DNA of 64,000 nucleotides, from NCBI GenBank assembly GCA_963837805.1, contig CAWIOU010000019.1, positions 26,610 to 90,609 of the forward strand, written 5' to 3'. The first letter of the stretch is position 1. Every line of letters begins with the position of its first letter. This document shows, piece after piece, positions 6,012 through 40,454 of this stretch. A program made the translations under genes and the position numbers. The notes under the pieces were generated by a model. The model was not told the origin of the DNA. It worked only from the letters and a program-made list of their open reading frames with translations, and searched no databases. The stretch comes from an uncultured Acidimicrobiaceae bacterium. GTDB taxonomy: Bacteria; Actinomycetota; Acidimicrobiia; Acidimicrobiales; RAAP-2.

Positions 6012-6917
6012 TCACTGCGACGAGCGGGGTTGCCTTGTTACCTCGGCGTTGCACTCCCGACATCTGCTCGTCAGCCCGTCCCGCTTGCCCTTGTGCTTGC
6101 CGAACGCCTGCAGCGGGAGAACCCGAGTGCATCTGGTACATCGCTTCATGTTCGGAGGCAGCTCGACCTTCGACCGAACTCGACCGAGAGGGACGCGGAC
6201 CGCTTTGCCATCAGCGTCTACCTCACCTGGGAATGGACGGCGTGGAGGCGACAGGTCTGCCTCAGCGTCATCGGCTGGACGGTATACAAACTCGTCCTCC
6301 AGCAACTTGAAGAACTCGTCGTCAGTCAGTACGCCCTTCCGCCGATTGCAGGGCTCGCAGGAGGGAACGATGTTTGAGATGTCGTTGGTTCCTCCCCTCG
6401 CCAAGGGCACCCGGTGCTCTCTCTGGAGCCTCTTACCGCCCTTGCCGCAGTAGTAGCAACGTCCGTCGTACATCTCTCGGATGAACCGCCACACGTCATC
6501 GCTCAGACCAGGGGCGGGGACTCGGTTGACAGGTGAACGACCGCGAGGGAGCGTCGGCGGCACCACGTCGGTCAGAACGACGCTGGAGCGGCCCTTCTGG
6601 ATCGACCGAGAGAGCTGCTTGGCGTGCCGCTCGGCATCCTTACGCCGACGATGCTTCGTGGGGCACACGCGGTAGCGCCCGGCGTTGTCCCAGAGAATGT
6701 CGATGAACTCCTCGTAGGGCCTGAAGATGCGGCGACCCCGAGCTGAGAAGTAGGGGGTCCGCTTCTTCTTGCGGACCACCTTGACCTGCCATGACACCCC
6801 GCACTGGTGTCGACTCCAGTTTGGCTTCGCTCCACAGACGGCGCACGCCGCCACCTCAGCGATCCCTCGACCATCCGGGAACGGACAACTTGCCCTTGAA
6901 AGTGTGGCTACCGCCAA
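6012..6917 (-). CDS. HNH endonuclease
   Basis: CYYCGKGGKRLQREHRVPLARGGTNDISNIVPSCEPCNRRKG is an HNH core. There is a C-terminal CTRC...CREC zinc ribbon. Confidence 0.8.
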   Translation of the reverse strand: MAVATLSRASCPFPDGRGIAEVAACAVCGAKPNWSRHQCGVSWQVKVVRKKKRTPYFSARGRRIFRPYEEFIDILWDNAGRYRVCPTKHRRRKDAERHAKQLSRSIQKGRSSVVLTDVVPPTLPRGRSPVNRVPAPGLSDDVWRFIREMYDGRCYYCGKGGKRLQREHRVPLARGGTNDISNIVPSCEPCNRRKGVLTDDEFFKLLEDEFVYRPADDAEADLSPPRRPFPGEVDADGKAVRVPLGRVRSKVELPPNMKRCTRCTRVLPLQAFGKHKGKRDGLTSRCRECNAEVTRQPRSSQ

Positions 6918-6971
6918 AGATCACGTCGCAAGGATACGGCCGCGTGTCGGGACCCGGTGGCCTCCGAGGGG

Positions 6972-7520
6972 TCAGGCCGTGAGGATCTGCGCCTGAGAAG
7001 CCGTCACATCCACGACCGGCCTCACCTTGTGGCGGTAGGCGGTTGCCAGCATCCGCACATCGTTATGACCGGCGAAGTCGGCCACTTCCCTGAAGGTGGG
7101 TCCCGGCATCAACCAGGAGTGAGATAGCCGTGTGGCGTAACTCGTTCGGGCTGAGGCCCACGATGCCGATCTGGACGCCGAGTTCGTCCACCGACCGTCG
7201 CAGGTTGGAGGGGTCGATGGGGGTGCCGATGTCCGTGGTGAACACCAGTCCGTGTTCTTCCCACGCAGGTGATGCCAGGCGCACCCGCTTCTGCTGTGCC
7301 TTGTAAGCCTTCAGCAGCGCGGTCAGCCCGTCCGGCATCTTCAAGGTGCGGTCGCCTCCTGCCTTGGGGTGTTCGATGGCAAAGGTGCCGTCAGGCAACC
7401 TCACTTGCGCCTGCTTCACGGTGAGCGTGCCAGCCTTCAGATCAACGGCAGACCACGGAAGGCCCAGCACTTCCCCAGGGCGAAGCCCCATCCAAACAGC
7501 GGTCAAGCCGCACCCTGGCG
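6972..7520 (-). pseudogene. tyrosine recombinase (phage integrase) catalytic domain lacking its N-terminal domain
   Basis: GLRPGEVLGLPWSAVDL...ELRHTAISLLVDAG, then one frame change, then ...FREVADFAGHNDVRMLATAYRHK. This gives the R, HxxR, H and Y motifs. The N-terminal core-binding domain is absent. The reading frame is fused to the upstream DLH domain. Confidence 0.7.
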
Positions 7521-7524
7521 CGCT

Positions 7525-8851
7525 CGTTGCCCGCAGGTACTTCTCGAACCATGCGCCGGACAACTGGGCCACTTCCTCGAGCGACCCGGGCTCTTCGAAC
7601 AGGTGGGTTGCGCCGGGCACGACGGCGAGCCGGCACGGGCAACAGAGATGGGTGGCCGCCACCCGATTGAGCTCGAGAACGTCGCGATCCGCCCCGCCCA
7701 CGATCAGCAGGGTGGGGCAGCGTACGAGAGGAAGCCGAGCGTCAGCGAGGTCGGGGCAACCCCCGCGCGACACTACGGCTCGGACGGTGTTGCCCGGCGA
7801 CCCGGCCGCCCACAACGCTGCGGCCGCGCCCGTGCTGGCGCCGAAGTAGCCCCGGGGCAGCCAGCCGAGCTGTCCCTGCCTGCGGATCCAATCGCTCGCG
7901 GCCAGCAGTCGACTAGCCAGAAGCTCGACATCAAAGACCTTTCGTCGGTCCGAAGCTTCGGCGGAGGTGAGGAGATCGAACAACAGCGTCCCGAGGCCCC
8001 GCGCGTGAAAGGTTCCGCGCCACCGCCAGGTTCCGAGGGCTGAGACGGCTGCTCCCACTTCCGTGGGCGAAGAGCACGAGACCCCGGGCGCCGGTCGGCA
8101 CCTGCAGGAGTCCCTCCAACTCGCTACCGTCGATGGGGACCGTTACCGCTCGATCGAGGTCAAGTCCGAGAGCCGGATCGGCGGCTCCGCTTGCGTTCTG
8201 GCGAAGCAGTGCGGCGACCTCCTCGTCCGACGTCTGCCCGAAATCGCGGTACCAGAGCCCGACGGCCACGAAGTGAGGGGGGGTCACCAAACTCACGACC
8301 TGGTCGACCTCAGCCTGGAGTTCCTTGACCGTCTCCGAGGGGGCCACGGGCACCGCCAGGACGATGTGACGGGCTCCCCGGGCCCGGGCGATGCGCACGG
8401 CCGTGCGCGCTGTTGCCCCGGTAGCCAGCCCGTCGTCGACGATGACCACCGTGCGTCCCTCGATGGCGATGGGCGCCCGTCCGTCCCGATACCGTCTGAC
8501 CCGGCGGGTCAGCTCTCGACGTTCGAGCGCTTCCACCTGGGTGATGTCCCGTTCTGTCAAACCCACCCGACGGACCAGGTCGGAGTCGAGCAGGCGAACG
8601 CCACCCTCTCCAATGGCCCCGAATCCGAGCTCGGCCTGGAACGGAAGGCCAAGTTTGCGGACCACGATGACGTCGAGCGGCGCCCGTAGGGCGCGGGCCA
8701 CCTCGGCGGCCACCGGCACGCCTCCCCGGGGCAAGGCCAGCACGACCGGCTGTTCGTCCCGGAGGGGGGCTAGCAGTGCGGCTAGGCGCCGACCAGCGTC
8801 TTTCCGGTCGGCGAAGACCTTCTGCCTCTCGTTCGGCCCGACGACGGTCAT
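7525..8851 (-). CDS. phosphoribosyltransferase - dienelactone hydrolase two-domain protein (frame change near 7990-8040)
   Basis: PRTase motif VVIVDDGLATGAT. DLH part: VLFAHGSGSSRLSPRN / GASTGAAAALWAA / VPGATHLFEE. Its ATG at 8851 is 1 nt from the stop of the upstream esterase-like gene. No stop precedes the integrase remnant. Confidence 0.75.
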
Positions 8852-8852: not shown

Positions 8853-10199
8853 TCACAACCCCGTGGGGAACGTCTCGGCTGGCTCCCCCCGATCCCACAG
8901 GGCGGTTCGCTCGAGGGGCTCGAGGGCACGGGTGCGGTCCATATGGATGACGGCATCGAACTGCTGGGCTAGCTGGGCCTCGAAGTAGTGGCTCTGAAAC
9001 TCGGTCTCCTGCCGGTAGATCACGCCGATGGCCCGCTCGAGCCGAGGGTGGCTCAGCGCGGCGTGAACGGGAAGGTCGGATGTGGACACACAGAACTGGG
9101 GAAGGCCAACGGCGTGCAGCAACGCCTCGTGGCTGTCGGGACGGGCGGGCCGGACCCGCTTACGCTGGGCCGGGGCGCCCCAGTCGTTGGCCGCGGTCAC
9201 CCAGCCGTCGAAGGTGGTGAACCCGATCAACGCGGCATCACCTCCGTATCGCTGCCGTGCCAGCTGACCAACGTTGAGCTCGCCCCGAAGGCCCATCGCC
9301 GTGGCGCGAGCGTCACCCACCTGGGAATTGTGCTCCCACACGACCACCTTGGTGTTGTTCGACTGGCGGTCGAGATGTGAGATCAACGTGTCGAGGGTGC
9401 CAGCCATATGCTGGTCACGTAGGTTCCACGATGACACCTCGGCGCGGTACATCTGGTGGTAGTACTCCTCGGCGTCGCGGACCAGCGCGGATTCTGCTCG
9501 GCATAGAACTGCTCATCCTCGGCCACCCAACCGTCCCGCCGGAGGTAGAGCTCCGCTCGCCGCCGCAACTCCAAAAGTTGGGCCACCACCTCGTTCTCGC
9601 ATGGGGCGGCCCCCTGGTAGACGACCGCATATCCGTACGCCTGACCCTCGAGACTCACATGGTCGAAGCACGAGTAGCGCCGCCGTGCCATTTGAGCCTC
9701 CCGCGGGATCGACCTCATCGAGGTACCCGATGACCGCCTCGATCGAGGTACGTAGACTGTAGAGGTCAAGTCCATAGAAGCGGGCCTTGGCAGCACGGTG
9801 GGTCTGAGCGTCGTTGCGGGCCCGGAGCCACTGCACGAAGCCCAACACATCCCGGTTTCGCCACATCCAGGTGGGAAAGCGGCGGAAGCCCCCAAGCGCG
9901 GCATCAGCATCCTTGTCGGACGACATGCCCATCACATACCTGTTGACCCGGTAGGCGTCTGGCCAATCCCCCTCGACGGCGACGACCGAAAAGCCGAGCT
10001 CGTCGATCAGGCGCCGGGTGATGCGGGCGCGCTCACGGTAGAACTCGTGGGTGCCGTGAGATGCCTCGCCGATCAGGACGAAGCGCCGGTCGCCGATGAG
10101 GGCGAGCAGCGAGTCATAATCCTCGGCCACGCCGATCACCGGCGACGCCGCCTGTCTGAGTGCTTGGGCCGACCGATCGACCAGCAAACTTGTGTCCAT
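8853..10199 (-). CDS. erythromycin esterase family protein (at least 2 frame changes)
   Basis: Three overlapping ORFs (9513..10202, 9383..9910, 8853..9452) tile one Ere-like protein: FVLIGEASHGTHEFY ... VVWEHNSQVGDARAT ... DAVIHMDRTRALEP. Confidence 0.7.
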
Positions 10200-10234
10200 C
10201 AATCCACCATGATCGGCCAGACGCGGGCCGACTA

Positions 10235-10248
10235 GGGCATGAAGTCCC
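10235..10248. promoter_or_regulatory. GGGCATGAAGTCCC, candidate DosR/NarL-type box
   Basis: Matches 11 of 14 positions of the mycobacterial DosR core GGGACTWWAGTCCC as I recall it. It lies 36-49 nt upstream of the esterase-like/PRT-DLH operon start. Confidence 0.3.
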
Positions 10249-15967: not shown

Positions 15968-17275
<1,308 letters not shown>

Positions 17276-17329
17276 TCACCCCGGAGGTCACCACTTGGAG
17301 CGTTCCCTTGGATTGCGGTGCCAGCGCCA

Positions 17330-17737
17330 TCAGCCCGACGACCCGGGACCCGTACTGGAGGCCTGCATCTGCTCGAGCAGCTCCTGGGTTTCGGTCAACG
17401 ATGCCGTGATGATTTGCTTGGCCACTTCCAGAAGATCGAAGAGCAGCGGCTCGGTGACCGAGTAGTAGACGTTCGCCCCCACCTTCCGGACCTGGATGAG
17501 GTTGGCCCGGCGCATGATGCCGAGCTGTTGGGAGAGGTGCGATGCCTCGATGCCGACCTCAGGGATGAGCTCGCTGACCGGTCGCTCACCGTCCCGGAGG
17601 ACCTCGAGGATGCGGATCCGCGCCGGGTGCCCGAGGGTCTTGAAGAACTCCGCTTTCACCTGGTAGATCGGGGTACTCATCGGTGTCGCATCTCCTGTCA
17701 TGGTCACGGCCTCACGCTTCCCGAGAGACAGGGCCAT
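17330..17737 (-). CDS. ArsR/SmtB family transcriptional regulator
   Basis: FFKTLGHPARIRILEVLRDGERPVSELIPEVGIEASHLSQQLGIMRRANLIQVRKVGANVYYSV. It starts 77 nt downstream of the hydrogenase-like operon on the same strand. Confidence 0.85.
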   Translation of the reverse strand: MALSLGKREAVTMTGDATPMSTPIYQVKAEFFKTLGHPARIRILEVLRDGERPVSELIPEVGIEASHLSQQLGIMRRANLIQVRKVGANVYYSVTEPLLFDLLEVAKQIITASLTETQELLEQMQASSTGPGSSG

Positions 17738-17813
17738 GAACTCGAGTGGTGCCGGTCGCCCGGCTCAATCCCTTCAAGCTTAATGAATTGATGAATCTGG
17801 CAATTGACCACCA

Positions 17814-19349
17814 TCAGAGGTCGTTCCCCGCATAGGAAAGGTTGAAGCTCTTGTTGGCCAGCGGGAAGTCAGGGACGATCGTGTCGGTCAGGCACACCGG
17901 GAGTGCCGGCCAGTTGAGGAAGGACGGATCGACCACCTTGACCCTGACCACCCGGCCCTCTCCGTCGAGCTCCACCCGATGCACCACAGCCCCCCGCCAG
18001 CCCTCGGCGATACCCACCCCTCCCTCCGAAGGCTGCGCACCGCTGCGGTTCTCGATCCAGGTCACCACCTCGAGGGCATCGCTGCGCTCGATGAGGTCGG
18101 CCAGGAGCGACAGCGATGCCCGGACCTCGTCCACCCGGATGCGAAATCGGGCCAGCACGTCTCCGCCCGAATGCACTGTCAGCGAAAACCCGTCCCCTAG
18201 GTCGGCAAGGGGATGGGCTGACCCGGGCGTCGAAGGCCAGTCCCGACGCCCGGCCGACGACACCGATGACCCCGAGGTCTCGGGCGTGGGCCTTATCGAG
18301 GGTCGCCGTCCCCGTGAACCGCTCCATGACGAGGGCGCTCGAGGTGACCAGCTCGACCAGCTCCTCGAAGCGCTGACCGATCTCGGCCAGCTCGGCCTCG
18401 GAGGGGAGGCGGAGCACACGGGCGCCTCCCGGCACGACGCCACCCCGCAGGAGGCGGTGACCGGTGACGGCCTGGTTCAGGCGCAGAAGGTTCTCGCGAA
18501 GGGTGAGCGCCCAGGCCTGGGCGATCCCGAACCCGACGTCGTTGCACAGCGCACCGATGTCGGCAACATGGTTGTAGAGACGTTCGAGTTCCAACAGCGC
18601 ACACCGCAGGAGCTGGCGCGTCCTCCGGCACCTGGGTCTGCCGGGCGTCCTCCACGGCCAGGCAGTAGGCCAGCCCGTGCCCGACGGCGGTGTCCCCGAG
18701 ATCCGCTCAGCGATCTCGAGGCCGGCGGCGACGTCTTTTCCCTGGCACAGCCGTTCGATCCCCTTGTGGACGAACCACAGCCGGGCCTTCATCCGCAGGA
18801 TGGTCTCCCCCACCACCCAGAAGCGGAAATGCCCGGGCTCGATGAGCCCGGCGTGCACCGGTCCGACCGGGATCTCGTACACACCGGTGCCTTCGACCGG
18901 GATGAACGGGAACGATCCGGCGTCGGCGACCATCGGGGGGACGTCGCCCGATCCGTGGCGCATCGGATGCCAGCCCTCCGGCCAGTGCTGATGGAGCACC
19001 AGGCGCCGGGGTTGGGGGTGGTCGACGGGCTCGATCCCGAAGAGGTCGGAAAGCTCGCGCTCGAACCGGGAGGCGGGAAACGAGAGCCCGGCCAGGGAGG
19101 GCACCTGGCGGCCGCGACCGGTCGATGGGTACATGGAGCTCGACACGGCTGTCGGGCGGGCCGCCGGTGAACAGGTAGACGGCGCGCATCGACACTCCGT
19201 CGTCGTGTCCGGACACAAGGGCGAGCCGCATCCCGTCGGCGAACAGGGACGTGGCCACGTCCACCAGGTCGCCGCTCTGCACGGCGGCGGCGACCCGGTG
19301 ATGACCCACCTGGCGAAGGGGCTCGGACAGCGTCGGCGGGAAGGCTCAT
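17814..19349 (-). CDS. NuoC-NuoD/HycE-like 'large subunit' lacking NiFe cysteine ligands (several frame changes)
   Basis: GVYEIPVGPVHAGLIEPGHFRF is present. The L1 position reads ERISGDTAVGH (expected RxCGxCxxxH). The C-terminus reads SFNLSYAGNDL (expected DPCxxCxxR). Its ATG overlaps the stop of the upstream gene (ATGA). Confidence 0.8.
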
Positions 19350-20804
19350 GTGGCCACCACATGGGCCGCGGCGCTCGAGCAACCCGGACAGCGGCCAGGC
19401 GAACACGCCGATGAGGCCACAGATCACCAAACCGCCGACCAGGGGCGCGGCCACCCAGCCGGGTGGAGGTGCCTGGACGACCGCTGTCCCCGAAGGACCG
19501 AGGAGCATGTGGCGGGCATGACCGACGACGGCGACGAAGATCACCACCATGGCCACGATCGCCGCCACCGCGGCCCAGCCCAGCCCCACCTCGAACTCAG
19601 CTCGGGCCATGAGCAGCTCGCTGCTGAACAGGCTGAAGGGCGGGAGCCCGAGCAGGGCCACGAGCCCGATGCCGAACACCCCACCGAGCGCGGGCGTCGG
19701 GCCAGCAGCGCCCGCACCCCGTCGATCTGGCTGGTTCCCTCGGCTGCCATGATCTCGCCGGAGGTCAGGAACAACACGCTCTTGGCCAGGCCGTGGCCGA
19801 GGATGTGGAGCAACACCGCGGCGATGGCGAGCGGGATGCCCGCCGCCGCGCCGAGGGCGATGAGCCCCATGTGCTCGATGCTGTGGTAGGCGAGCATCCG
19901 CTTGTAGTCGCGTTGGGTGAGCAGCAGCGAGGCGGCCATGGCCAACGACAGGAGGGCCACGATGACGAGCAACCCCCGGGCGAACCCGGGCCCACGGCCA
20001 GGTCCACCACCGCCTTGAACCGCAGGATGGCGTAGAAGGCCACGGTGAGCAGCACGCCGGACATCAGGGCGGAGATCGGAGCCGGTGCCTGGCTGTGGGC
20101 GTCGGGCAGCCAGCTGTGCATCGGGGCCAGGCCCACCTTGGTCCCATATCCCAGGACCAGCAGGGCGAAGGCCAGCCGCATCACCGACGGGTCGAGGTGT
20201 CGGGCGTGGGCCATGAGTGACGTCCAGTCGAGGGCGTCGGCCGAGTGGCCACCGGCGTGCAACGCGGCCAGGTAGACGAGCACCGTGCCCAGAAAGGCCA
20301 AGGCGATGCCCACCGAGCAGATCACGATGTACTTCCACGAGGCTTCGAGGGCCCCCTTGGTCCGGCGGTGGCCGACCAGGAAGGTGGTGACGATGGTGGT
20401 GGCTTCTATGGCCACCCACAGCACGCCGACGTTGGCAGCCAGGACGGCGAGCAGCATGGCGGCCACGAACGCCTGGACCAGCACGCCGTAGGTGGTGGCT
20501 CGCCGTTGTGTGCTCTGTCCGTTGGCCAGCTCGAGGGCGACGGTGCGGATCCCGATCCACGAGGCCAACAGGGCGATGGCCCCGATGACCACGACCATGA
20601 ACGCACTCAGGGCGTCGGCCCGCAGCACACCCCCCGCCCCGGTCAGCGGACCGGTCCGGACCACCCGCACCGCCGCCCAGATGCCGAGGCCCAGGGCGGC
20701 ACCGTTTGTGCCGACCCGGCCCACCCGAGTATCGGCCGTCCCCTGCCGGCGGCACGACCGCTGCCGCCGAGGAGGGGAAGGACGAGGATGCAGACCAGGA
20801 CCAT
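19346..20804 (-). CDS. HyfF/NuoN-like proton-conducting membrane subunit (frame changes)
   Basis: WVAIEATTIVTTFLVGHRR...GTKVGLAPMHSWLPDAHSQAPAPISALMSGVLL. The start overlaps the stop of the upstream gene (TGATG). Confidence 0.8.
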
Positions 20805-21466
20805 CAGTCGTGCAGCTCGGTGAGTTCGTCGAGGTCGAGGTCGCCGAACTCGGAGCGCAGGCGCTGGGCCAGCACCATGAGGACGACCACCCCCAACAGC
20901 ACGTCGAGGGAGACGCCCATCTCGATCAGGAAGGGAACGCCAGCCGTGCATAGGAAGGCCACCATGGCGATCCCGTTGTCGATCATGAGCAATCCGACCA
21001 TCTGGAAGATGGGCCGGCGCCTGGCGACCAGGACGAAATAGCCGAGGAGGGCGGTGGCCGACACCCACTGGGACCAGCGCACCGGTGGTACTCGCCCACG
21101 AAGTGGGCCACGCCCCGGGCGGCGGCGAAGGCGAGCACGATGAGCACGGCGGAGGCGACCAGCGAGGCAGGGACGTTGACCAGTGGCCTGCGTCTCGCGG
21201 GTGAGGGCCCCGCCGCCGGCTCGCTGCCGAGCAGGACGCGGGATGGCGATGCCCTTGACGGCCAGGACGACGGCCGCGGTGGCGATCAGGCCGGCGTCGC
21301 TCAGGTGGACGCCGAGCACGAGGACCACAAGGCCGAGGGCGACGCCCTGGAGGGCGACGACTCGGATGACCGATCGGACCGAGCTCAGCCACACCACGGT
21401 CACCGCGCAGACCAGCACCGCGCCGACCGCCAGCGTAAGGGTCGAGGTGAACGGCGACCCGTTCAT
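20804..21466 (-). CDS. HyfE/NuoK-like membrane subunit (paired frame changes near 21150-21240)
   Basis: MNGSPFTSTLTLAVGAVLV...IFQMVGLLMIDNGIAMVAFLCTAGVPFLIEMGVSLDVLLGVVVL. The corrected middle reads PLVNVPASLVASAVLIVLAFAA. Confidence 0.75.
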   Translation of the reverse strand: MNGSPFTSTLTLAVGAVLVCAVTVVWLSSVRSVIRVVALQGVALGLVVLVLGVHLSDAGLIATAAVVLAVKGIAIPRPARQRAGGGALTRETQATGQRPCLAGRLRRAHRARLRRRPGRGPLRGRVPPVRWSQWVSATALLGYFVLVARRRPIFQMVGLLMIDNGIAMVAFLCTAGVPFLIEMGVSLDVLLGVVVLMVLAQRLRSEFGDLDLDELTELHD

Positions 21467-22426
21467 GGCACCACCAGGGCCGAGAGGACGGCCAGCACCG
21501 AGAGCACGAAGGCCCCGGCCAACAGTTCGGGGACCCGGAAGAGGCGGAGCTTGGCCACCGTCACCTCGAAGACGGCGAGGCGCGATCCCGAGGGCGGCGA
21601 CCTTGGCCACGGTCGTCGCCAGACCCAGCGGCAGATGGTGGCGACCCGGTGCCGTGGCGATGCCCCAAGGGACGAAGAGATCGGCGAATAGCGCCATCAG
21701 CAGAGCCAGGCGCATCGACTCACCCAGCTTGATGAGCGCCAGATCCGTGCCCGAGTACTCGAGGACCATCGCCTCGTGGATCATGGTCAGCTCCAGATGG
21801 GTGCTCGGATTGTCGACGGGGAGGCGACCGCTCTCGGCCACGATCACGATCACGAATGCCACCAGCGCCAACAGCCGTTCCGGGGTGGCCAGCCACAGGG
21901 GATGGGCGAGGGAGCGGGTGATGATGGCGGGCAGGTTGGAGGAGTGGGCGGGCACCGACAGGGCCAGAATGGCGACCAGCAGGGCCGGCTCGGACAGGGC
22001 CCCGATGGTCATGGCCCGGCTGGCCCCCATGCCTCCGAAGGCGGTCCCCGAGTCGAGGGCCCCGAGGGCCAGGGCGACCGAGCCGAGCAACAGCATGAAG
22101 ACGACGGCGAAGAGGTCGCCAGACCACCCAAAGGCGGGATCGGTGGCGAGCAACGGAGCGATGACGGCCACCACCACGGTGCTGCCGACCAAGACCAACG
22201 GGGCCAGGGGGAAGATCCAACTCGTCTCGTCGGAGGTGGTCCGCTCCCGCCAGGCCAGCTTCCTGAGGTCGTAGAGGGGTTGGCGGACCGGGGGACCGAC
22301 CCGGCCTTCCAGGCGGCAGCGCACTGTGCGCATCAGCCCGACCAACAGCGGTCCCCCGACCAGCACTCCCGCCACCTGGAGCATTGAGACCGCCACCATC
22401 GAAGCGGTCGGCCAGCTCGTCTTCAT
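21463..22426 (-). CDS. HyfC/HycD/NuoH-like membrane subunit (frame change near its 3' end)
   Basis: RLEGRVGPPVRQPLYDLRKL...ESGRLPVDNPSTHLELTMIHEAMVLEYSG. ATGA overlaps at both ends. Confidence 0.8.
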
Positions 22427-24346
22427 CCGACCACCACCAGCACCACGACGAGGGCCACCAGTCCGAAGGCCAGGTAACGGTGCGATACTGCCGTTGGGCA
22501 CCCGCCGGGCCAGGGCCCCCCACCGCCCGAGGCCCACGGAGGCGGGGCGGTAGGCGTGTCGCTCGAAGGCGTCGTCGAGCGAGGTGTGGAATGTAGCGGC
22601 CTCGACGTAGTACCGGGACTCGGCCGCATGGCTCACGTCGAGATCGTGGGCCGGCTGGAGCACGTCCTCGAACACCCGGGTCAGCGGCTCACCGAACGAG
22701 GTGGCCGTGTACTCCATGGCTGCCGTCTGGAGCTCCCGGCCGCACCCCCACGCCTCGGTGCGCCGAACCGGGGTGCGCTGGAGCACCCGTCGAGCCCCGG
22801 CGACCAGGGTGACGGCAACGACCAGCGCCAGAGCCAGGAGGCCGGGGGCGAGCGCACCGTGGACGCTGGCCAGACCCACCTGCCAGCCGCCCAACAGGGG
22901 GTCGGGGATGCGGGACTCGGTGACGCTGCGGGCGGCGCTCGACCACGGCCGGGACGACCAGGAAGGGGGCCACGCCGAACACCAGGCAGAGCGTGGCCAG
23001 GACGCCGGCCCCGAGCCACATCGACGGGCCGACCTCGTGTGCCTCGGCCGCCCCGGTGCTCCGGGGTTGCCCGAGTAGCCCGATGCCGGCGGCCTTGACG
23101 ACCGTGAGGGCGGTCAGCCCACCGGTGAGGGCAAGGGCGCCTACCCCGATGGGCATGGCCACCGCGATGGCGGGATCGGAGGAGGGAAGGCCGTGCAACA
23201 TGGCCTGGAGCAGGAGCCATTCGCTCACGAAGCCGCAGAGCGGCGGGCATGGCGGCCATGGCCAGGCCGCCGACCAGGAAGATGCTGCCCGTCATCGGCA
23301 TGCGCCGCAGGAGCCCTCCGATCCGGTCGAGGTCCCTGGTGCCTGTCGCCTGCTGGAGCGAGCTTGCCGACAAGAACAGCGATCCCTTGAAGACGGCGTG
23401 GAAGACCACGTGCAGGAGGGCGGCGACCAGCGCTAGGAGGGCCAGTGTCCGGTGCCCGGTCGAGGCGAACAGGCCCGAGGCGCCGACCCCGAGCAGCATC
23501 AGCCCCACGTTGTCGGTGGTCGAATAGGCCAGCAGCCGCTTCAGGTCGCTGCTGGTCGCCGAGTGCAGGGATCCGAACAGGGCCGACAGCGCGCCGAGGG
23601 TCATGACCAGAAGCCACCACCATGTCGGTCCCCCGCCGAGCAGCCCGTCGCCGACCCGGACGATGCCGTAGATCCCGAGGTTGACCATGGCCGCCGACAT
23701 CAGGGCGGACACCGGACCCGGGGCTTCGGGGTGGGCCCGGGGCAGCCACACGTGAAGAGGCGCCATGCCGGCCTTCGAGCCGAAGCCGACCACCGCCAGC
23801 ACGAAGGCGCTGCCCCGCACCCAGGCGGGCAGGTGCGCCGACCTGGCGGCAATGGCGGCGAACGACTGGCTCGCCGCGTGGGCGGCCAGGAGGACCAGGC
23901 CGACCAGCAGGGCGGCGGCGCCGAACTGGGTCATCACCGCGTACCACTGGCCGGCCGAGCCCACCTCCGAGCGCCGCCGATGATCGACGAGGACGAGCAG
24001 GAGCGAGGTGACGGCCATCAACTCCCACAGGAACAGGAATGTGGTCACGTTCGACGCCGCCGGGACCAGCAACAGGGTGGTGACGAACAGCGGGAGGAGG
24101 CACGACGCTGTCCGGCTGGAAAGGCCATGACCGTGGTAACCGAGGCGGAAGACCATGGCGCAGATCCCGACGACGGCGCTGACGGCGACGAACATCGCAC
24201 CGAAGCGGTCGAGGCACCATCAAGAGACCGCTGAAGGGCAGCAACGTTGCAGTGTGCACGACGGCCACGTCTCCGGTGTGGAGCACCGCGGTGGCCATGA
24301 CCAATCCACAGGCGCAGGGAGCGATGGTGAGCGCGACCGCAGACAT
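22423..24346 (-). CDS. HyfB/NuoL-like membrane subunit (frame changes)
   Basis: GSKAGMAPLHVWLPRAHPEAPGPVSALMSAAMVNLGIYG. The C-terminal block EAWGCGRELQTAAMEYTATSFGEPL is typical of HyfB. Confidence 0.8.
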
Positions 24347-24431
24347 GCATCCTGATCCTCGGTGGCGCCATCGCCCCGACAGCAGAGGCGGACAGTCCGA
24401 CCAGCGCGGTCGAGGACGAGCAGGTCGGACG

Positions 24432-24920
24432 TCATGTACCGGCCAGGCCCCGTAGCGCGGTGATGATCGTCTGGGGGTCCGGGGGGCAGCCGGGAATCTC
24501 GAGGTCGACCGGCACCACGTCGGCCACTGCTCCTTCGACGCCGTAGGCGTCGCGGAACACCCCGCAGTTGCGGGCGCAGTCGCCGAGCGCCACCACCACC
24601 CGCGGTCGGGGCACGGCCTCGAAGGTCTTGCGCAGGGGGTCGGCCATGTTGCGGGTGACCGGCCCGGTGACGAGCAGGCCGTCGGCGTGCCGGGGTGACG
24701 CCTCGAGCCGCATCCCGAAACGCTCGGCGTCGTAGACCGGAGAGAAGATCGAGGCGATCTCTAGCTCACAGCCGTTGCACGACCCGGCGTCCACGTGGCG
24801 GAGCTGCAAGGAGCCCCGGTTGCGTCGGGCCGCCTCCTGGATCGGCGGCGCCCCGGGGTCGGCCGGAGGCAGGGCGACAGGCCTGGCCCGCAATCGTCGG
24901 ACCAGCCCAGTTAGTCGCAT
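24432..24920 (-). CDS. NuoB/HycG-like small subunit with [4Fe-4S] cysteines retained
   Basis: GSCNGCELE...ALGDCARNCG...IPGCPP. The likely start is the ATG at 24920 (MRLTGLV). First gene of the operon. Confidence 0.85.
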   Translation of the reverse strand: MRLTGLVRRLRARPVALPPADPGAPPIQEAARRNRGSLQLRHVDAGSCNGCELEIASIFSPVYDAERFGMRLEASPRHADGLLVTGPVTRNMADPLRKTFEAVPRPRVVVALGDCARNCGVFRDAYGVEGAVADVVPVDLEIPGCPPDPQTIITALRGLAGT

Positions 24921-24962
24921 GATTGACAGATATATCAATCAATGATTATGTGAGTTGTCAAA
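24921..24962. promoter_or_regulatory. AT-rich divergent promoter/operator region between the hydrogenase-like operon and pckG
   Basis: TTGACA at 24923-24928 (plus strand) and TTGACA on the minus strand at 24961-24956. Imperfect palindrome ATTGACAGATATATCAAT. This is by eye the most AT-rich stretch I noticed in the window. Confidence 0.45.
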
Positions 24963-25071
24963 TCACCACACTCTGCGACGGATTCATGCCTGCCGGCGGG
25001 TGCCGGTAATGGCCGCAGCACGGACGGCCCCAGAACTGTGGCTGAGGCACATCGCAAGAAGGAGGCAGCAA

Positions 25072-26878
25072 GTGAGCACGACGGCGACAACGCCCACAAG
25101 GAACAAATCGCTCCTGGAATGGGTCGAGGAGTGGACGGCCATCCTCACCCCCGCTGGCGTGGAGTGGTGCGACGGGTCCGACGCCCAGTACGAGGCGCAG
25201 TGCCGGCGCCTGGTGGAGTCGGGCACGTTCATCCCGCTCAACCCCGAGTTGCGGCCGGACAGCTTCCTCTGCCGGTCCGACCCGGGCGATGTCGCCCGGG
25301 TGGAGGACCGGACCTTCATCTGTTGCGGGAAGCCTGAGGACGCCGGTCCCACCAACAACTGGATCGAGCCGGTGGTCATCCGCGCCGAGCTGCTCGACCT
25401 GTATCGGGGAGCGATGCGAGGTCGGACCCTCTATGTCATCCCGTTCTCGATGGGGCCGCTCGGCAGCCCTATCGCCCATATCGGCGTGCAGCTGACCGAC
25501 TCGGCCTACGTCGCCGCCTCGATGCGCATCATGACTCGTATGGGCACCGCCGCCCTTGATGTGCTCGGGGAGACCGGCGAGTTCGTGCGGTGCCTGCATT
25601 CGGTCGGACACCCTCTCGCCCCGGGCGAAGCGGATGTTCCTTGGCCCTGCGATCCCGATCGGAAGTACATCGTCCACTTCCCCGAGACTCGGGAGATCTG
25701 GTCGTACGGCTCCGGCTACGGAGGGAACGCGCTCCTGGGCAAAAAGTGCTTCGCCCTGCGCATCGCCTCGACCATGGCCCGGGACGAGGGTTGGCTGGCC
25801 GAACACATGCTCATCCTCAAGCTGACCAATCCACGAGGCGAGAGCCGTTTCATCGCGGCCGCCTTCCCGAGCGCTTGCGGCAAGACCAACCTGGCCATGG
25901 TGGTTCCCACTATCCCCGGATGGAAGGCCGAGACCATCGGTGACGATATCTGCTGGATGAAGTTCGATGCCGAGGGCCACCTCCGGGCCATCAACCCGGA
26001 GTTCGGGATGTTCGGCGTGGCGCCAGGCACGGGGATGAGACCAATCCCATCGCCATACGGGCGCTCGCTGGCGGCACCATCTTCACCAACGTCGCCTTGA
26101 CCGACGACGGTGACGTCTGGTGGGAGGGCCTCACCCCCGAACCACCGGACCACCTCACGGACTGGCGCGGGGACGACTGGACGCCAACGAGCACGAGCCC
26201 GGCCGCTCATCCCAACAGTCGTTTCACAACCCCGCTCTCCCAGGTCCCGACCATGGCGCCCGAATGGGAGGACCCGAACGGCGTGCCCATTTCGGCCATT
26301 CTGTTCGGCGGTCGCCGGGAATCGGTCGTCCCCCTGGTCACCGAATCGTTCGACTGGGCCCACGGGGTGTTCCTCGGGTCGATCATGGCGAGTGAAACGA
26401 CAGCCGCCGCGGCCGGTGCCACCGGGCGCCTGCGCCGCGATCCCTTTGCCATGCTCCCTTTCTGTGGGTACAACATGGCTGACTACTTCGCCCACTGGCT
26501 CCGCATCGGAGAGATGGCACCGAACCCGGAACTGCTCCCAAGCTCTTCTACGTGAACTGGTTCCGGAAGGACGCTGAAGGTCGTTTTATCTGGCCAGGCT
26601 ATGGCGACAACGCCCGGGTTCTGGCTTGGATCTTCGATCGGTGCGAGGGGACGGTCGATGCCACCGACACGCCGATCGGATTGCTACCCGAACGGGACGA
26701 CCTGAATATCGACGGACTGGAGATCGATCCGAGCGCCCTCGCAGAGCTGCTCGTCGGCGAGGCTTCCGCCTGGCGCAACGAGGTACCACTCATCGAAGCG
26801 CACTTTGCCCAATTTGGTGAGCGACTTCCTGACGAATTACGCCATCAGCTCACGACCCTGGAACAACGGCTCGGCTAA
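25072..26878 (+). CDS. pckG: phosphoenolpyruvate carboxykinase (GTP) (at least 2 frame changes, near 26041 and 26550)
   Basis: GTG at 25072 follows AAGAAGGAGG. Motifs: [42 protein letters not shown]. The gene continues in ORFs 26097.. and 26552.. Confidence 0.9.
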
Positions 26879-27122
26879 TCACAGTTGAATAGCGCGTCGA
26901 GTGCATCGGCACAACGAGAGCGTCGCATGCGATGAGTTGAAGCATCGTCAACGCGTCGCTGTGTCCGAGCCGAGCCTGCGCCTTAATCAGTTTGACCTCG
27001 TCAACAAGATGTGTGGGCACCCGTGTCGCAATCGGTGCACTGCCAGGTTTGAGACACCAACAAATCCGGTAGTTGCCGAAAATGACTGGTATCAACAGGA
27101 GAGCGGGTAAACGCTCGAGTTA

Positions 27123-29909: not shown

Positions 29910-31527
29910 TCAGTCGTTCCGGTTGTCGTCCGCGCCCGCCGACTCGGCGACCGATCGCGCCCAGGGGTAGTCTGGTTTGCCGGTCGGTGATCGCAGGATC
30001 TCGTTGACGACGATGACTACCTTCGGCACCTTGTATCCGGTCAACTGGCTGCGCTCGTAGCGTCGTAGCGCTTCGGTGTCGATTCGGCATCCGGGGCTGG
30101 GCTGCACCAATGCAACGACTTGCTCGCCGAAGCGGTTGTCGGGCATGCCGACCACGATTGCGTCGCGGATATCCGGGTGGCCCTTCAAGACCGCCTCCAC
30201 CTCGTCGGGAAAGACCTTTTCACCCCCCGTATTGATGCACAATGACCCGCGCCCCAGCACGGTGATGGTCCCGTCACTCAGTACTGACGCCAAATCTCCG
30301 GGTAGCGCCCAGCGCTGCCCACCCAGCTCAACGAAAGTCGCTGCCGACTTGGCTGCATCACCGAGGTAGCCGATGGGAACGTGGCCCCCCCTTGGCCAGG
30401 CGCCCGATAGCTCCAGAGCCAGGCCGGACCGGGTGGAGATCGTCATCGAACACGTCAGTCCGGTCGTCCACATGGAGTCGAGGCGGCCCGAATGGATCCC
30501 CAGGCGGCGTCTCGCCGCCAACCTGTCCCGTTTCCGAAGCACCGAATCGATCGGCCACGACTCGGCCGGGCAGAAGCCGGCTCAGCTGGGCCTTTGTGGA
30601 CGGCGACAGCAAGGCACCGCCTGAGCCCACGGCCATGAGCGAGGAGAGGTCGTAGCGGCCCGGTTCGGCCGCCAGCACGTCGAGAAGTGGGCGGGCCATA
30701 GCATCGCCAACGACAGCGATCACGTTGACCGATTCGGATTCTACGAGTTGCCACACCTCCGAAGGATCGAAGATGCCTCTCTCGAGGGTGACGATTTCTC
30801 CTCCGCCGAACAGAGTGGAGAACGCCAACCAGTGACCGGCCGAATGAATGAACGGCGGAATGGCAAGAGCGGTCATGCCGGGACGCAGGATCCGTTCAGC
30901 AAGCTCACCGGGAGTAGCAATGTAATTTCCCAGAGACAGGAGGTCACCACCGCCCATGGCCGCGAAGAAGATATCGTCGTGCCGCCAGAGAACCCCCTTT
31001 GGCATTCCCGTCGTTCCTCCGGTGTAGACGCAGTACAGATCATCGGACCGCCGCGGAGGGAAGTCACGCGTGCCCGGGGCCGACTCCAGTGCCGCCTCGT
31101 AGTGACAGGCGATGTCCGAGGGGTCGCTGCCGTCAAGAACCTCCAGCATTCCGCGTGTGTCTTGCATGGCACCGAGTGCGCCGGTCACCGCTGGGGCGAA
31201 TCGACTGTGGAAGATCAGACCCGCAAGTGCCGCATCCCGGTAGATGTATTTCAGTTCACTCGATATGTAGCGATAGTTCACGTTGATCGGCACGGCACGG
31301 ATCTTGAAGCAGGCCAGCATGACCTCGATGTACTCGGTTCCATTGACCAGCTGGATGCCGATGTGATCTCCAGGACCAATGCCGACACCCTCGAAATAGT
31401 GGGCAAGACGATTGGATCGTCGGTCCAAATCGAGGTACGTGAGTCGTCGCGCGCCAGACACCATGGCGGTCTCGGCCCCCACCTGATCAACCACGCTCTC
31501 AAAGAGATCGGCAAGATTGAACTCCAC
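29910..31527 (-). CDS. acyl-CoA synthetase (AMP-forming), frame change near 30390
   Basis: YTGGTTGMPKGV, GASETG and GGEKVFPDEVE motifs. ORFs 30358..31527 and 29910..30542 tile one protein. Confidence 0.85.
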
Positions 31528-31643
31528 GACCCTCCTCTGTTACCGATTGGCCATTCCAGACGGCCTTCAACGTGAGTACAGGAGGTAGTATCTCAGGTGG
31601 CGAGCCCGCCGGAGCGTGTGCGCCGCAGTGAGGAAGGACACCC

Positions 31644-32966: not shown

Positions 32967-32977
32967 GGGGCTGAACC

Positions 32978-34379
32978 ATGGAGACGATGGCGGCCCTCGA
33001 CGCCAAGTTTCTCTATTCCGAGACCCCTACAACCCACATGCACACGATCAAAGTGGCGGTGGCGGACGCGTCGGACGTTCCGGGTGGTTTCTCCTATGAC
33101 AACTTGACCGAGGTCCTCCGGCAGCTTCTCGTCCGACTGCCGGCTTTTCGCAGACGGGTCATTTCTGTGCCGGGAGGCCTGGACCACCCCGTGTGGATAG
33201 AGGATCCTGAGTTCGAGCTGAGGCACCACCTCACTCGGATGGAGCTTCCCGACCCGGGCAACGATCGCCAGCTCGCCACTGCGGTGGCCGCGTTCGCAAG
33301 TAAACCATTGGCAAGGGATAGACCACTCTGGGAACTACTTGTCATTGAGGGTTTGGCCAATGAACGCGTCGCAGCCGTGGTGAAGATCCACCATGCAGTG
33401 GCCGATGGTTCGGCCGCGGTCGCAATGCTTCGAAATGCTGTACAAGGTGTCGCCGCGGCGGCCACCGAACCCATCGACGACCCATGGCATCCCGAGCCAA
33501 TTTCCACGAGGCGACGACTGCTATCGATGGCCGCACACGACCATGTCACCCGCTGGAAAGGTCTGCCTCGCCTGGTGAGGCAGACAATTAGGCAGACCAA
33601 TGCCTCTGAGCACCGGCGTCGAGCCTTCTCTCCCAGACCGCCGCTCCCGCTCCACCACATCCCCAAGACATCCTTCAATGTTTCCATTACGTCCGAGCGG
33701 ACCTTCGCCATGACCAACTTGCCGCTCCGAGACCTTAAGGCGATCCGGCAGACAACCGGAACCACATTGAACGATGTCTACCTCGCTCTATGTGGAGGTG
33801 CTCTTCGGCGCTACCTATCAGATCGTGACGAGCTACCCGATCGTCCGCTCGTAGCCAGCATCCCTGTGTCTACCGATCCTGATAGCGCCCGTCTGTCGGG
33901 AAACCGAGTCGACAATCTCTACGTCTTCATTGGTACTGAGATCGCCGACCCGCTTAGGCGCCTCAAGCAAATCCATGAGGGGATGGAAGCCTCCAAGGAG
34001 GTGCGGGGACTGCTCGGTCATGACGGCCTTGCGCAACGAGCCGACGTTGTCCCGCCTCAGATCTACCACTCGAATTGTCAGGATGTGGGGCCGCTCACAC
34101 ATCGCCGACCGAGTGAACCCGCCGCTCAATGTGATTCTTTCCAATGTGGCTGGACCAAGAGACAGAATCTTCTTCGGCCGCGCTCAGCTAGAGGGACTTT
34201 ACTCGGCGGGACCGATCCTAGAGGGGATCGGCCTGAACATCACTGCGTGGAGTTACGCGGACGCACTGGGTGTCTCCGCTCTCGCGTGCCCGACAAGTGT
34301 TGCCGATCCGTGGGCGATCATCGCTGCCCTCCACGACTCGCTGGATGAGCTTCGGATCGCGATCGATGGAAACGCGTAG
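32978..34379 (+). CDS. wax ester synthase / diacylglycerol acyltransferase (WS/DGAT), frame change near 34060
   Basis: HHAVADG active-site motif. The C-terminal part in ORF 33930..34379 reads NVAGPRDRIFFGRAQLEGLYSAGPILEGIGLNITAWSY. Confidence 0.85.
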
Positions 34380-34819: not shown

Positions 34820-35911
34820 TCAGTGCGATACGGCGCAACGATTGGGGCCTACCTCCAAGGTACGTAGGGCAGCCAGCGAGTCACTCACGCGGCCCATGTT
34901 GGCGTCGATGATCCTCGCGTAGTTGGGAGGCCGTTCGACTGAGCGAGACGCCGCCCACTCGATAAACGTGGACCGGTCGAACGAGAGTGCCGCAAGGTCC
35001 CTCCGTAAGTCACCCAGCAATGCCCCGACCGGCTCATCGGGCCGGACAACGATCGCGTCCCCGTAGTGACCGGGCAGCACCAGGACTTCGTCAGGAAGGA
35101 TAATCAAGGACTCATGGAGCGAGGTGTAGAGATCATCCGCGAACTCTGCGGCCCGGTCCACCAGGTCGGGACGACCGACGCTCTCGATGAACAGGGTGTC
35201 GCCGGTGAGGGCAGCTCGGTCGCTCGCCACATAGACAGTGGATCCCCGGGTGTGCCCCGGGGTGTGCAGTGCAACCACCGAGAGCCCATTCCCACCGGGC
35301 AGTTCAAATCGGTCACCGTCAGCGATGGGCTCGTAGGCGAACTCGAAGTTGTCCGCTGGATTGAGGTGGAGCGAAGCCCCGGTGATGCCAGCGAGCGCCC
35401 GAGCACCGCTCAAATGATCAGCGTGGAGGTGCGTGTCGAAGACTCTCCCGATGATCCATCCGTGCTCGTCGGCGAGCCGTGTGTAGATGTCCGTGTCAAC
35501 TGAAGGGTCGATGACGAATGCTCGATCGGCAGACCCCACCACATAGGAAAGACACCCCTTACCCCGTCGGCGGACCTGCACGATTCGCAGGTCGAAGAAC
35601 TCAATGGTGACGGAATCGTAGGTTTGCCCCCACGCATTCATGCCGCCAGAAAGGTTGCCTACTTGTCGACCCGACCGGCTGAGCGTTTTGGCTGCCAGGG
35701 TTGACCGGCTGCCAGAGCCACAGACCGTCACCACTTCACGGTCGGTCGGCACTTCGTCGATCCGGGCGGACACCTGCCCGATAGGGATGTTCACCGCCGT
35801 TGGAATCGACCATTCGTAGAATTCAGCCGGCTCTCGCACATCGACCAGAAAGAACTCTGCCGACGTCCCGAGCCGAGCTGCAACCTCGGATGCTTCCACG
35901 TTTCGGTACAT
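34820..35911 (-). CDS. rhodanese - MBL-fold persulfide dioxygenase-like fusion
   Basis: N-terminal rhodanese (VVTVCGSGSRS). The MBL motif THLHADHLSG and LHTPGHTRGS are present. Intact. Confidence 0.8.
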   Translation of the reverse strand: MYRNVEASEVAARLGTSAEFFLVDVREPAEFYEWSIPTAVNIPIGQVSARIDEVPTDREVVTVCGSGSRSTLAAKTLSRSGRQVGNLSGGMNAWGQTYDSVTIEFFDLRIVQVRRRGKGCLSYVVGSADRAFVIDPSVDTDIYTRLADEHGWIIGRVFDTHLHADHLSGARALAGITGASLHLNPADNFEFAYEPIADGDRFELPGGNGLSVVALHTPGHTRGSTVYVASDRAALTGDTLFIESVGRPDLVDRAAEFADDLYTSLHESLIILPDEVLVLPGHYGDAIVVRPDEPVGALLGDLRRDLAALSFDRSTFIEWAASRSVERPPNYARIIDANMGRVSDSLAALRTLEVGPNRCAVSH

Positions 35912-36097
35912 TCAAGTCCTCCGTTCGGGACAACAATGGCTGCCGCTCGTCGCCCCTCAATGTCCTTTGTGCCTAGATCTTCGAACTTTCCATCAAATGG
36001 CCATTGAACATGCAGCCGACGTTGGTACTCGTCAAGAATGGAAAACCGCGCCAAACTCGAAGGGAACAAATCCGATCGTAACGGCGCCATGGCTCTG

Positions 36098-37779: not shown

Positions 37780-37929
37780 CGGGTGAACCACGATCCCCCC
37801 TTGCCCGGCGATGTCGTCCGACACCGGCCACGATCATCGCTCGGCAGAACGCCCGGGACCTGTCCGACATGGGCCCTGCAGCCTCTCCCGTACGGCCGAC
37901 CGCAATTCCTACATGAAGAAGGTCTGCGC

Positions 37930-37945
37930 ATACCCCATAGGGTAT
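37930..37945. promoter_or_regulatory. ATACCC-CATA-GGGTAT palindrome, candidate CsoR/CstR operator
   Basis: Perfect 6-bp arms in the divergent region between the CoADR-rhodanese operon (start 37779) and the CsoR-family gene (start 38063). It resembles the GC-core TACCC-N-GGGTA operators of this family. Confidence 0.6.
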
Positions 37946-38062
37946 CATCGGTGGCTGTCCCCGCAATGGCGCCGCGCACTCCCCGGAGTGCAGTTCTCGC
38001 ACTGAACTGGGCACATCGAGTCCACCAGGCTTCCCCCAGAAGACCCAAAATGAGGAGAGAAC

Positions 38063-38332
38063 GTGCAATTACCCGATGAGGTGGTCGAGGACCTTCGGAA
38101 GCGGCTACGCCGGGCTGGAGGTCAGGTGCAGGCCGTAGAGACCATGCTCGCTGAAGGTCGTGAGTGTCGTGACATCGTGACGCAGCTCAGTGCCGCGAAC
38201 AAGGCGCTCGAGCAGGTGGGCTTCCGGCTGATCGCCAGCGGGCTGACCTACTGCCTCGAGCATCCCGAGAAGGCGGCCGAGTCCGGCTATCCGCTCGATG
38301 AAGTTCAGCGCCTCTTCACCAAGCTGGCATGA
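38063..38332 (+). CDS. CsoR/RcnR (DUF156) family repressor, CstR-like by context
   Basis: LRRAGGQVQAVETMLAEGRECRDIVTQLSAANKALEQVGFRLIASGLTYCLEH, with two conserved Cys. It lies next to sulfide-oxidation genes. Confidence 0.8.
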   Translation: MQLPDEVVEDLRKRLRRAGGQVQAVETMLAEGRECRDIVTQLSAANKALEQVGFRLIASGLTYCLEHPEKAAESGYPLDEVQRLFTKLA

Positions 38333-38396
38333 GCTTCGGATGACGATCGTCATGCTTATTCGCCCTATCCGATTCGAGGGATGGAGGAGGCCGACC

Positions 38397-40413: not shown

Positions 40414-40454
40414 GCGCCGATGCACCCGTAGATTCACCAGAAGAGGAGAGGACC

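Follow-up and report, generated by a model that had tools for sequence, protein, structure and literature searches.

Six genes and an adjoining regulator gene in a 64-kb stretch of DNA from an uncultured Acidimicrobiaceae bacterium (contig CAWIOU010000019.1; we call the whole of this stretch the window) probably encode an energy-converting-hydrogenase-related (Ehr) module of the actinobacterial kind, the counterpart of Mycobacterium tuberculosis Rv0081–Rv0087, in which a cysteine-free ArsR protein accompanies a six-subunit membrane complex. We place the probability of this assignment at about 0.8. To judge from its sequence, the cassette cannot be a [NiFe] hydrogenase, because all four Ni-Fe cysteines of the large subunit have been replaced and the C-terminal maturation extension is absent; the complex is most likely a redox-coupled, ion-translocating one. 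Ehr complexes, for none of which a substrate has been assigned or a structure solved, are widespread and are placed between hydrogenases and complex I; the system in the window is an ordinary member of this already described family, not a new kind of system.

A preliminary description of this DNA had proposed an Ehr-type complex encoded by six translationally coupled genes at 17814–24920. Four features support that proposal: the large subunit lacks the cysteines of its L1 and L2 motifs, the small subunit keeps its cluster ligands, the membrane arm consists of NuoH-, HyfE-, and NuoL/M/N-like proteins, and the large subunit falls outside the clade of cysteine-bearing sequences.

Gene Content

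Pfam and NCBIfam profile searches were run on the open reading frame (ORF) pieces of the window, and gene limits were taken over from a near-intact relative. The cassette occupies the minus strand from the small-subunit ATG at 24920 to the large-subunit TGA stop at 17816–17814. Its genes are contiguous, with no extra gene between S, A, B, C, D, and L. The coordinates first proposed proved exact, and both the protein families and the stop/start overlaps at the junctions (in order ATGA, ATGA, ATGA, TGATG, and ATGA) agree with the subunit types then given.

24432–24920, minus strand: S, small subunit (EhrS; NuoB/HycG-like), 162 amino acids (aa); Pfam Oxidored_q6, 1.6e-29; the sole intact ORF of the six
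22423–24435, minus strand: A, HyfB/NuoL-like antiporter-type membrane subunit, ~668 aa corrected; Pfam Proton_antipo_M; best NCBIfam model hydrogenase 4 subunit B, 538 bits over the full length, missing the cut-off of 667
21463–22426, minus strand: B, HyfC/HycD/NuoH-like membrane subunit, ~320 aa corrected; Pfam NADHdh, 1.2e-34
20804–21466, minus strand: C, HyfE-like small membrane subunit, ~218 aa corrected; single NCBIfam match hydrogenase 4 membrane subunit (HyfE), 2.9e-18, under the cut-off
19346–20804, minus strand: D, HyfF/NuoN-M-like antiporter-type membrane subunit, ~486 aa corrected; Pfam Proton_antipo_M; best NCBIfam model hydrogenase 4 subunit F, 375 bits, under the cut-off
17814–19349, minus strand: L, large subunit (EhrL), fused NuoC-NuoD/HycE-like, 510 aa corrected; Pfam Complex1_30kDa and Complex1_49kDa
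17330–17737, minus strand: Rv0081-type ArsR/SmtB regulator, 135 aa; Pfam HTH_5; NCBIfam metalloregulator subfamily, 77 bits (cut-off 55)

No curated family claims the six proteins, because every NCBIfam equivalog match falls under its curated cut-off. The best models for S, B, and L are NuoB, NuoH, and NuoD, respectively; the NuoD and NuoH scores lie far under, the small subunit comes within 0.2 bit of the NuoB subfamily cut-off, and NCBIfam holds no model specific to the proteins of this cassette. As the preliminary description had noticed, the window lacks a HycF-type subunit, hyp genes, and an endopeptidase: ferredoxin-type (Fer4), hyp, endopeptidase, and formate dehydrogenase families are all missing among its other ORFs of at least 100 aa. 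NuoE, NuoF, NuoG, NuoI, NuoA, and NuoJ are absent from cassette and window, and the conserved neighbours of the related loci that we fetched include no hypA-F or endopeptidase gene either.

The Large Subunit

The large subunit of the window reads ERISGDTAVGH at the L1 position and SFNLSYAGNDL at its C-terminus. Both departures from the hydrogenase motifs had been claimed previously, and alignment with the best solved relative, HycE of Escherichia coli formate hydrogenlyase (FHL; PDB 7Z0S chain E, 7z0s_E; E = 1.9e-61), makes the claim precise: VCGICGFAH of HycE pairs with ISGDTAVGH and DPCYS with NLSYA, so that the four cysteines are replaced, in turn, by Ser, Thr, Ser, and Gly. The protein stops at ...AGNDL; HycE runs on past CTDR into the extension that is removed by endopeptidase. 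On this alignment the large subunit is evidently descended from group-4 [NiFe]-hydrogenase large subunits.

Since five of the six genes are frameshifted in the assembly, as discussed below, the loss of the cysteines had to survive correction of the reading frame. The L1 motif straddles a deletion of 1 nucleotide (nt) at ~18699, where the Ser codon is TCN for any restored base. Correction against five relatives at 87–91% nt identity (L001, L002, L003, L010, and L029, all metagenome-assembled genomes [MAGs] of Acidimicrobiales/Acidimicrobiaceae, mostly from one long-read soil series) yields S/T/S/G and regains no cysteine. All of 12 intact homologues (69–90% identity) carry ERISGDTAVGH and KSFNLSYAGNDL. 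A wider census covered 79 sequences from 81 fetched loci, at 58–94% identity, and down to 58% none of these relatives has a cysteine at any of the four positions.

Cysteine 1 position: Ser in 79 of 79
Cysteine 2 position: Thr in 53, Ser in 26 (of 79)
Cysteine 3 position: Ser in 78, Thr in 1 (of 79)
Cysteine 4 position: Gly in 79 of 79

Few regions of the large subunit are as invariant as the former active-site pocket: D219, H224, Y505, N508, D509, and E170 (the last in the EPGHFR loop) are at least 97% conserved in the 79 relatives, and the loop as a whole varies little or not at all.

HMMER, run exhaustively against 1.84 billion cluster representatives, returned 881 matches below 1e-30, and the best 150 of these contained 108 near-full-length sequences that could be sorted by motif. 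Nineteen of them have three or more of the four cysteines (17 have all four), in motifs such as ERVCGVCAVSH and KSFELCYSCCDR; two more sequences, truncated at the C-terminus, carry both L1 cysteines. Most of the remainder show Ser/Gly-type replacements within recognizably equivalent motifs. When 94 representatives were placed in an unrooted neighbour-joining tree, one split gathered 19 of 19 cysteine-type sequences and no cysteine-less one. The family of the window large subunit lies outside it, which is where the proposal of an Ehr-type complex would put it; grouping with bona fide NiFe enzymes would have spoken for a hydrogenase. Cysteine-less representatives clustered at 50% identity are spread over many clusters, and the window cassette sits on a different branch from other Ehr complexes.

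Small and Membrane Subunits

Residues of the small subunit are numbered here from an upstream in-frame TTG at 24938, six residues ahead of the ATG at 24920. Its cysteines C54, C57, C121, and C151, which had been recognized at the outset as retained cluster ligands, are 99–100% conserved across 67 loci, and all four align with the cluster cysteines of its best solved relatives, HycG (7z0s_G, 5.5e-35) and MbhJ; on this evidence the small subunit should retain a single [4Fe-4S] site. In the membrane arm, the HyfB- and HyfF-like subunits conserve a Glu in transmembrane helix 5 (TM5) and Lys residues in TM7 and TM12, as do the antiporter-type subunits of complex I and Mrp, and the acidic motif AESGRLPVDNPSTHLELTMIHEAMVLEYSG of the NuoH-like subunit is almost invariant in 74 sequences. 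By alignment, these three subunits retain the Glu and Lys residues with which complex I and Mrp translocate ions.

The Regulator and Its Candidate Operators

The ArsR protein ties the cassette to M. tuberculosis. Its best solved relative is Rv0081 (PDB 6JMI, 6jmi_A; E = 1.7e-27, 99 bits, near full length), the runner-up scoring 46 bits. The window protein has no cysteine among its 135 residues and neither alpha3 nor alpha5 metal ligands, and its recognition helix reads ASHLSQ against SSNLSQ in Rv0081. Rv0081 is itself without metal sites or cysteines, autoregulates rv0081-rv0088, and binds DNA through Ser and Gln residues of this helix (bioRxiv 10.1101/465575). The resemblance to Rv0081–Rv0087 that the preliminary description drew is strengthened by these scores; the annotated gene series is consistent with it (PMC6901956), and the M. 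tuberculosis genes have been called Ehr (PMC6728331).

The ArsR gene adjoins the cassette in ~62 of the 81 loci; where it lies downstream it shares the strand of the cassette, and where it lies upstream it may be on either one. Its position at the 3′ end of the operon, noted previously, is confirmed and is one of two common layouts: the closest relatives share it, and Streptomyces, Micromonosporaceae, and others have the gene upstream. Two sites deserve mention as possible targets of the regulator.

24920–24947, no strand assigned: AT-rich inverted repeats TGATTGA-N8-TCAATCA and AATCA-T-TGATT, abutting the small-subunit ATG
17783–17792, no strand assigned: palindrome ATCAATTGAT between the large-subunit gene and arsR; the window copy reads ATCAATTCAT

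The repeats at 24920–24947 are almost invariant in L010, L029, L002, and L003 and partly diverged in L001, within intergenic DNA that is otherwise variable; they are absent from distant loci. They could form an operator or promoter region, and their contact with the small-subunit ATG suggests a leaderless or near-leaderless transcript. The idea that ATCA-N(0-3)-TGAT is a general ArsR operator ahead of the small-subunit gene was rejected, the pattern being confined to the closest relatives, at 5 of 66 loci, and we keep it as a local candidate. The palindrome at 17783–17792 is perfect in four of the five close relatives, L001 having ATCAATTGCT, and is likewise a candidate ArsR operator, for these near relatives only. 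A scan of 17200–25100 for promoters and terminators found nothing, including no consensus sigma-70 promoter.

Distribution and Mobility

In a scan that took one genome per species, the cassette was found in at least 554 species-representative genomes, mostly of Acidimicrobiales and other Actinomycetota. The best 80 of these at least 554 are chiefly Acidimicrobiales MAGs, together with Streptomyces, Micromonosporaceae, Actinopolymorpha, Actinoallomurus, and Pseudonocardiaceae; cultured Actinomycetes that have the cassette include Amycolatopsis, Kutzneria, Saccharopolyspora, and Streptomyces. Every locus that holds a complete cassette keeps the order S-A-B-C-D-L. Clustering of the flanking ORFs of the 81 loci left ArsR as the sole general neighbour, with pckG, a thiolase, and a DNA polymerase-like ORF recurring near the cassette within sub-lineages only.

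The cassette moves as a seven-gene unit with its Rv0081-type regulator. It is present, with identical motifs, on Rhodococcus linear plasmids (L082) beside IS110 transposases, and one Pseudonocardia copy is annotated as plasmid-borne. In the window, the GC content of 18000–24000 is 70–72%, with 0.83–0.95 at third codon positions (GC3), against 60–64% GC in the surrounding genes; a signature of this kind served to class the M. tuberculosis hyc locus as horizontally acquired (PMC3087520).

Divergent to the small-subunit gene lies pckG, for the GTP-dependent phosphoenolpyruvate carboxykinase, an arrangement shared by a set of Acidimicrobiaceae relatives (10 related loci). This is a curious echo of Nocardioides, where the hyc locus sits in pckA (PMC3087520); we looked for a partial duplication of pckG beyond the other end of the operon, such as is reported for Nocardioides, and there is none in the window. 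Mobile-element remnants (an HNH endonuclease, a phage-integrase fragment, and an insertion-sequence-type HTH_32 transposase piece) occur at 6015–8142 (minus strand) and 42915–43565 (plus strand).

Elsewhere in the window, an apparent sulfide/persulfide detoxification cluster spans 34823–41274 and comprises a rhodanese fused to a metallo-beta-lactamase domain, a CoA-disulfide-reductase-like flavoprotein, a Pyr_redox_2 protein resembling sulfide:quinone oxidoreductase, and DsrE_2; a small ORF at 38054–38329 looks CsoR/CstR-like, judged by eye only. The window also encodes a GAF-HisKA_3 sensor kinase (59345–60517, minus strand), two Pyridox_ox_2 proteins (49371–49889 and 60695–61201, both minus strand), and a WS/DGAT triacylglycerol/wax-ester synthase (32975–34345, plus strand), a content that brings to mind mycobacterial DosR-type dormancy functions.

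Proposed Mechanism

We suggest that the complex couples a redox reaction to the movement of H+ or Na+. A soluble low-potential partner, ferredoxin for example, would dock on the small subunit at the place that HycF or NuoI occupies in related complexes; since the cassette encodes neither HycF nor NuoI, such a carrier would reduce the small-subunit cluster directly. The [4Fe-4S] cluster would then hand electrons on to an acceptor in the remodelled polar pocket, made up of Ser217-Gly-Asp219-(Thr/Ser)...His224, Asn502-Leu-Ser504-Tyr505...Asn508-Asp509, and Glu170 of the EPGHFR loop. Menaquinone seems the most plausible acceptor, by analogy with the pocket that became the quinone site in complex I. 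ArsR may repress the operon and its own gene, as Rv0081 does. We hold the specific chemistry (redox-driven ion movement, a ferredoxin-type donor, an acceptor in the pocket) tentatively, as somewhat worse than an even bet.

A stronger form of the proposal is that the former Ni-Fe pocket, kept unvaried in hundreds of actinobacterial species, is no relic but a new active site, binding and reducing menaquinone or another small acceptor, within a self-contained, six-subunit, ion-pumping oxidoreductase that has a single Fe-S cluster. We regard this as possible and, on balance, doubtful. If true, the cassette would represent an extant intermediate form, lying between group-4 hydrogenases and complex I and mobile among genomes: a pump supplied straight from a soluble low-potential carrier, of service to soil Actinomycetota in hypoxia or when energy is limiting.

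Several observations weigh against our interpretation. We know of no Ehr complex with a demonstrated electron donor, acceptor, or activity. The clustering of flanking ORFs from the 81 loci revealed no conserved redox partner gene beside the cassette. The positions of the Nqo4 quinone ligands of complex I, Tyr87 and His38, align to Gly and Ile, so that a quinone site here would need a different construction. The tree is a neighbour-joining one only, unrooted and built without named HydDB references, and its strength is moderate. Finally, indels (insertions or deletions) found in the window alone number ~2.9 per kb in the operon, most of them insertions, against 0.8–1.6 per kb, all deletions, in the flanking pckG and thiolase genes; this excess is not fully explained.

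Alternative Explanations

The absence of an electron-input module and of a recurrent redox partner at the 81 loci would be expected if the complex were a non-redox, Mrp-like cation/proton antiporter whose peripheral subunits serve as a structural, regulatory, or sensing cap. The two antiporter-type subunits do have their Glu and Lys residues intact, and their NCBIfam scores come near those of the Mrp A and D models. Against it, the four [4Fe-4S] ligands are conserved at 99–100%, the invariance of the pocket is hard to reconcile with a mere cap, and equivalents of MrpB, C, E, F, and G are absent; we consider this explanation improbable.

We give no better odds to the possibility that the cassette supplies the membrane module for a formate dehydrogenase-Ehr complex whose dehydrogenase is encoded elsewhere in the genome. 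A pairing of this sort has been proposed for Margulisbacteria, Saganbacteria, and Geobacter (PMC6349859), the Ehr subunits of Geobacter peak in abundance on formate (PMC7894505), and formate sensing by Rv0081 has been floated as a mere idea (bioRxiv 10.1101/465575). Neither the window nor the conserved neighbours at 81 loci include an fdh, NuoE, or NuoF gene, and the cassette moves alone with ArsR, onto plasmids as well.

The operon might instead be a real pseudogene, decaying in this organism through some 20 genuine frameshift mutations. Five of its six genes are indeed out of frame, broken by ~20 private indels (16 insertions and 4–5 deletions; one measures 2 nt, the others 1 nt), and a GC3 frame plot switches frame repeatedly across the cassette outside S.

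~24411, 24340, 24214, 23243, 22938, and 22483, minus strand: private insertions in the HyfB-like gene
~21582, minus strand: private insertion in the HyfC/NuoH-like gene
21239, 21229 (2 nt), 21191, 21094, and 21060, minus strand: five private insertions in the HyfE-like gene
20716, 19994, 19692, and 19373, minus strand: private indels in the HyfF-like gene
~19336, 19108, 18699, 18616, and 18219, minus strand: private indels in the large-subunit gene

The indel density given above and the 16 insertions, set beside deletions only in the flanks, are what this reading has in its favour. It is nonetheless quite unlikely, and we dropped it on the strength of the stop codons, the substitution ratios, and the indels found across the window. 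Correction by majority column gives six full-length proteins with no internal stop in 6.9 kb. In the corrected cassette, pairwise ratios of nonsynonymous to synonymous substitution rates (dN/dS) are 0.135–0.17 for pairs that include the window, similar to the 0.12–0.15 among the relatives themselves; all six genes are under purifying selection. Larger deletions are lacking. The neighbouring central-metabolism gene pckG (24955–26887, plus strand) has three private deletions and is spread over three frames, the thiolase gene (15968–17236, minus strand) has one, and several other window genes are frameshifted as well. Sister long-read MAGs carry their own, different private indels in the cassette, six in L029 and three in L003. 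Because no stops remain after correction, dN/dS is low, flanking genes are frameshifted, and sister MAGs have private indels of their own, we conclude that the frameshifts are long-read assembly errors and not gene decay. The excess of insertions may be a base-caller bias in DNA of 70% GC.

Some further observations concern the assembly itself. Single-base frameshifts occur window-wide, and the sequence resembles unpolished long-read data: at 8856–10247 (minus strand), 54787–56224 (plus strand), and 29913–31539 (minus strand), the genes for an erythromycin esterase, a CHAD protein, and an acyl-CoA synthetase each fall into two neighbouring ORFs in different frames. The insertions in the operon are mostly of C or G beside CG or GC. 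L010 has a frameshift near the end of its large-subunit gene (~11240, equivalent to ~18111 of the window), and the HyfB-like gene of L001 (4897–6932) is annotated as fragments. Related public MAGs are frameshifted in this GC-rich operon, and published protein sets therefore hold truncated or chimeric entries.

That the operon encodes a functional FHL-type [NiFe] hydrogenase, as the kinship of its large subunit with HycE and the source annotations of its relatives (“Ni,Fe-hydrogenase III large subunit” or “formate hydrogenase,” in some cases “formate hydrogenase HycE”) would suggest, is exceedingly improbable: 79 of 79 relatives lack the four Ni-Fe ligands, a HycF/HycB-type subunit is missing, as is a C-terminal extension on which an endopeptidase could act, hyp, hycI, and fdh families are absent from the window and from the conserved neighbours at 81 loci, no subunit reaches an NCBIfam hydrogenase cut-off, and M. 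tuberculosis is without maturation genes (PMC6728331). Names of this kind are misleading, and such loci should not be tallied as H2 metabolism in metagenome surveys.

Comparison with Known Systems

E. coli FHL and hydrogenase 4 (Hyc and Hyf; group 4a; PDB 7Z0S) provide the closest solved relatives of the large and small subunits and share with the window cassette a fused NuoC-NuoD, membrane subunits of the HyfB, C, E, and F types, and the EPGHFR loop. Unlike them, the cassette is without the Ni-Fe cysteines, HycF, HycB, FdhF, HycH, HycI, and the C-terminal extension, and its small-subunit gene comes first in the operon. Complex I, through its core of NuoB, C, D, H, K, L, M, and N, has the folds and families of all six subunits, an N2-type cluster, and the same charged residues in its antiporter-like subunits; in both systems an ancestral NiFe pocket would have been repurposed. 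The cassette differs from complex I in having no NuoA, E, F, G, I, or J.

Ehr complexes of comparable subunit types, their function unknown, have been described in Geobacter, Nitrospira, ammonia-oxidizing archaea, and Margulisbacteria (PMC7894505, PMC10284858, PMC10432482, PMC6349859), and Ehr large subunits without CxxC motifs are on record (PMC10284858, PMC10432482). The complex of Geobacter sulfurreducens (GSU0739-45) resembles that of the window in its NuoL-like, HyfE-like, large, and small subunits (PMC7894505). In our analysis a tight link to an ArsR gene was seen for the actinobacterial cassette only.

The nearest parallel is M. tuberculosis Rv0081–Rv0087. Both loci have an ArsR regulator without cysteines or metal ligands, and the annotated gene series are compatible, Rv0082–Rv0087 being given as two oxidoreductases followed by hycD, hycP, hycQ, and hycE (PMC6901956); the structural proteins are likened by annotation only. 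The M. tuberculosis genes have been described as homologous to Ehr complexes and as almost certainly encoding no hydrogenase, maturation genes being lacking (PMC6728331). Raised GC and evidence of horizontal transfer are common to both as well: a 2009 study reported that the hyc locus was transferred horizontally among Actinobacteria and has a GC content of 69.1%, against 65% in M. tuberculosis (PMC3087520). The two differ in the place of the regulator gene, which is downstream of the large subunit in the window and upstream in M. tuberculosis, and no equivalents of Rv0079, Rv0080, or Rv0088 were seen at the window locus. When a Pseudonocardiaceae sequence served as the seed of a second homology search, the matches included Pseudonocardiales and other Actinomycetes, with no Mycobacterium in the best 120.

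What the comparison adds is breadth. Soil Acidimicrobiales very commonly carry the M. tuberculosis-type cassette with an Rv0081-like regulator, as do many cultured Actinomycetes; the remodelled pocket shows strict conservation, and the cassette spreads as a seven-gene unit. Tractable organisms, and the exact residues to examine, are now available for probing the M. tuberculosis complex.

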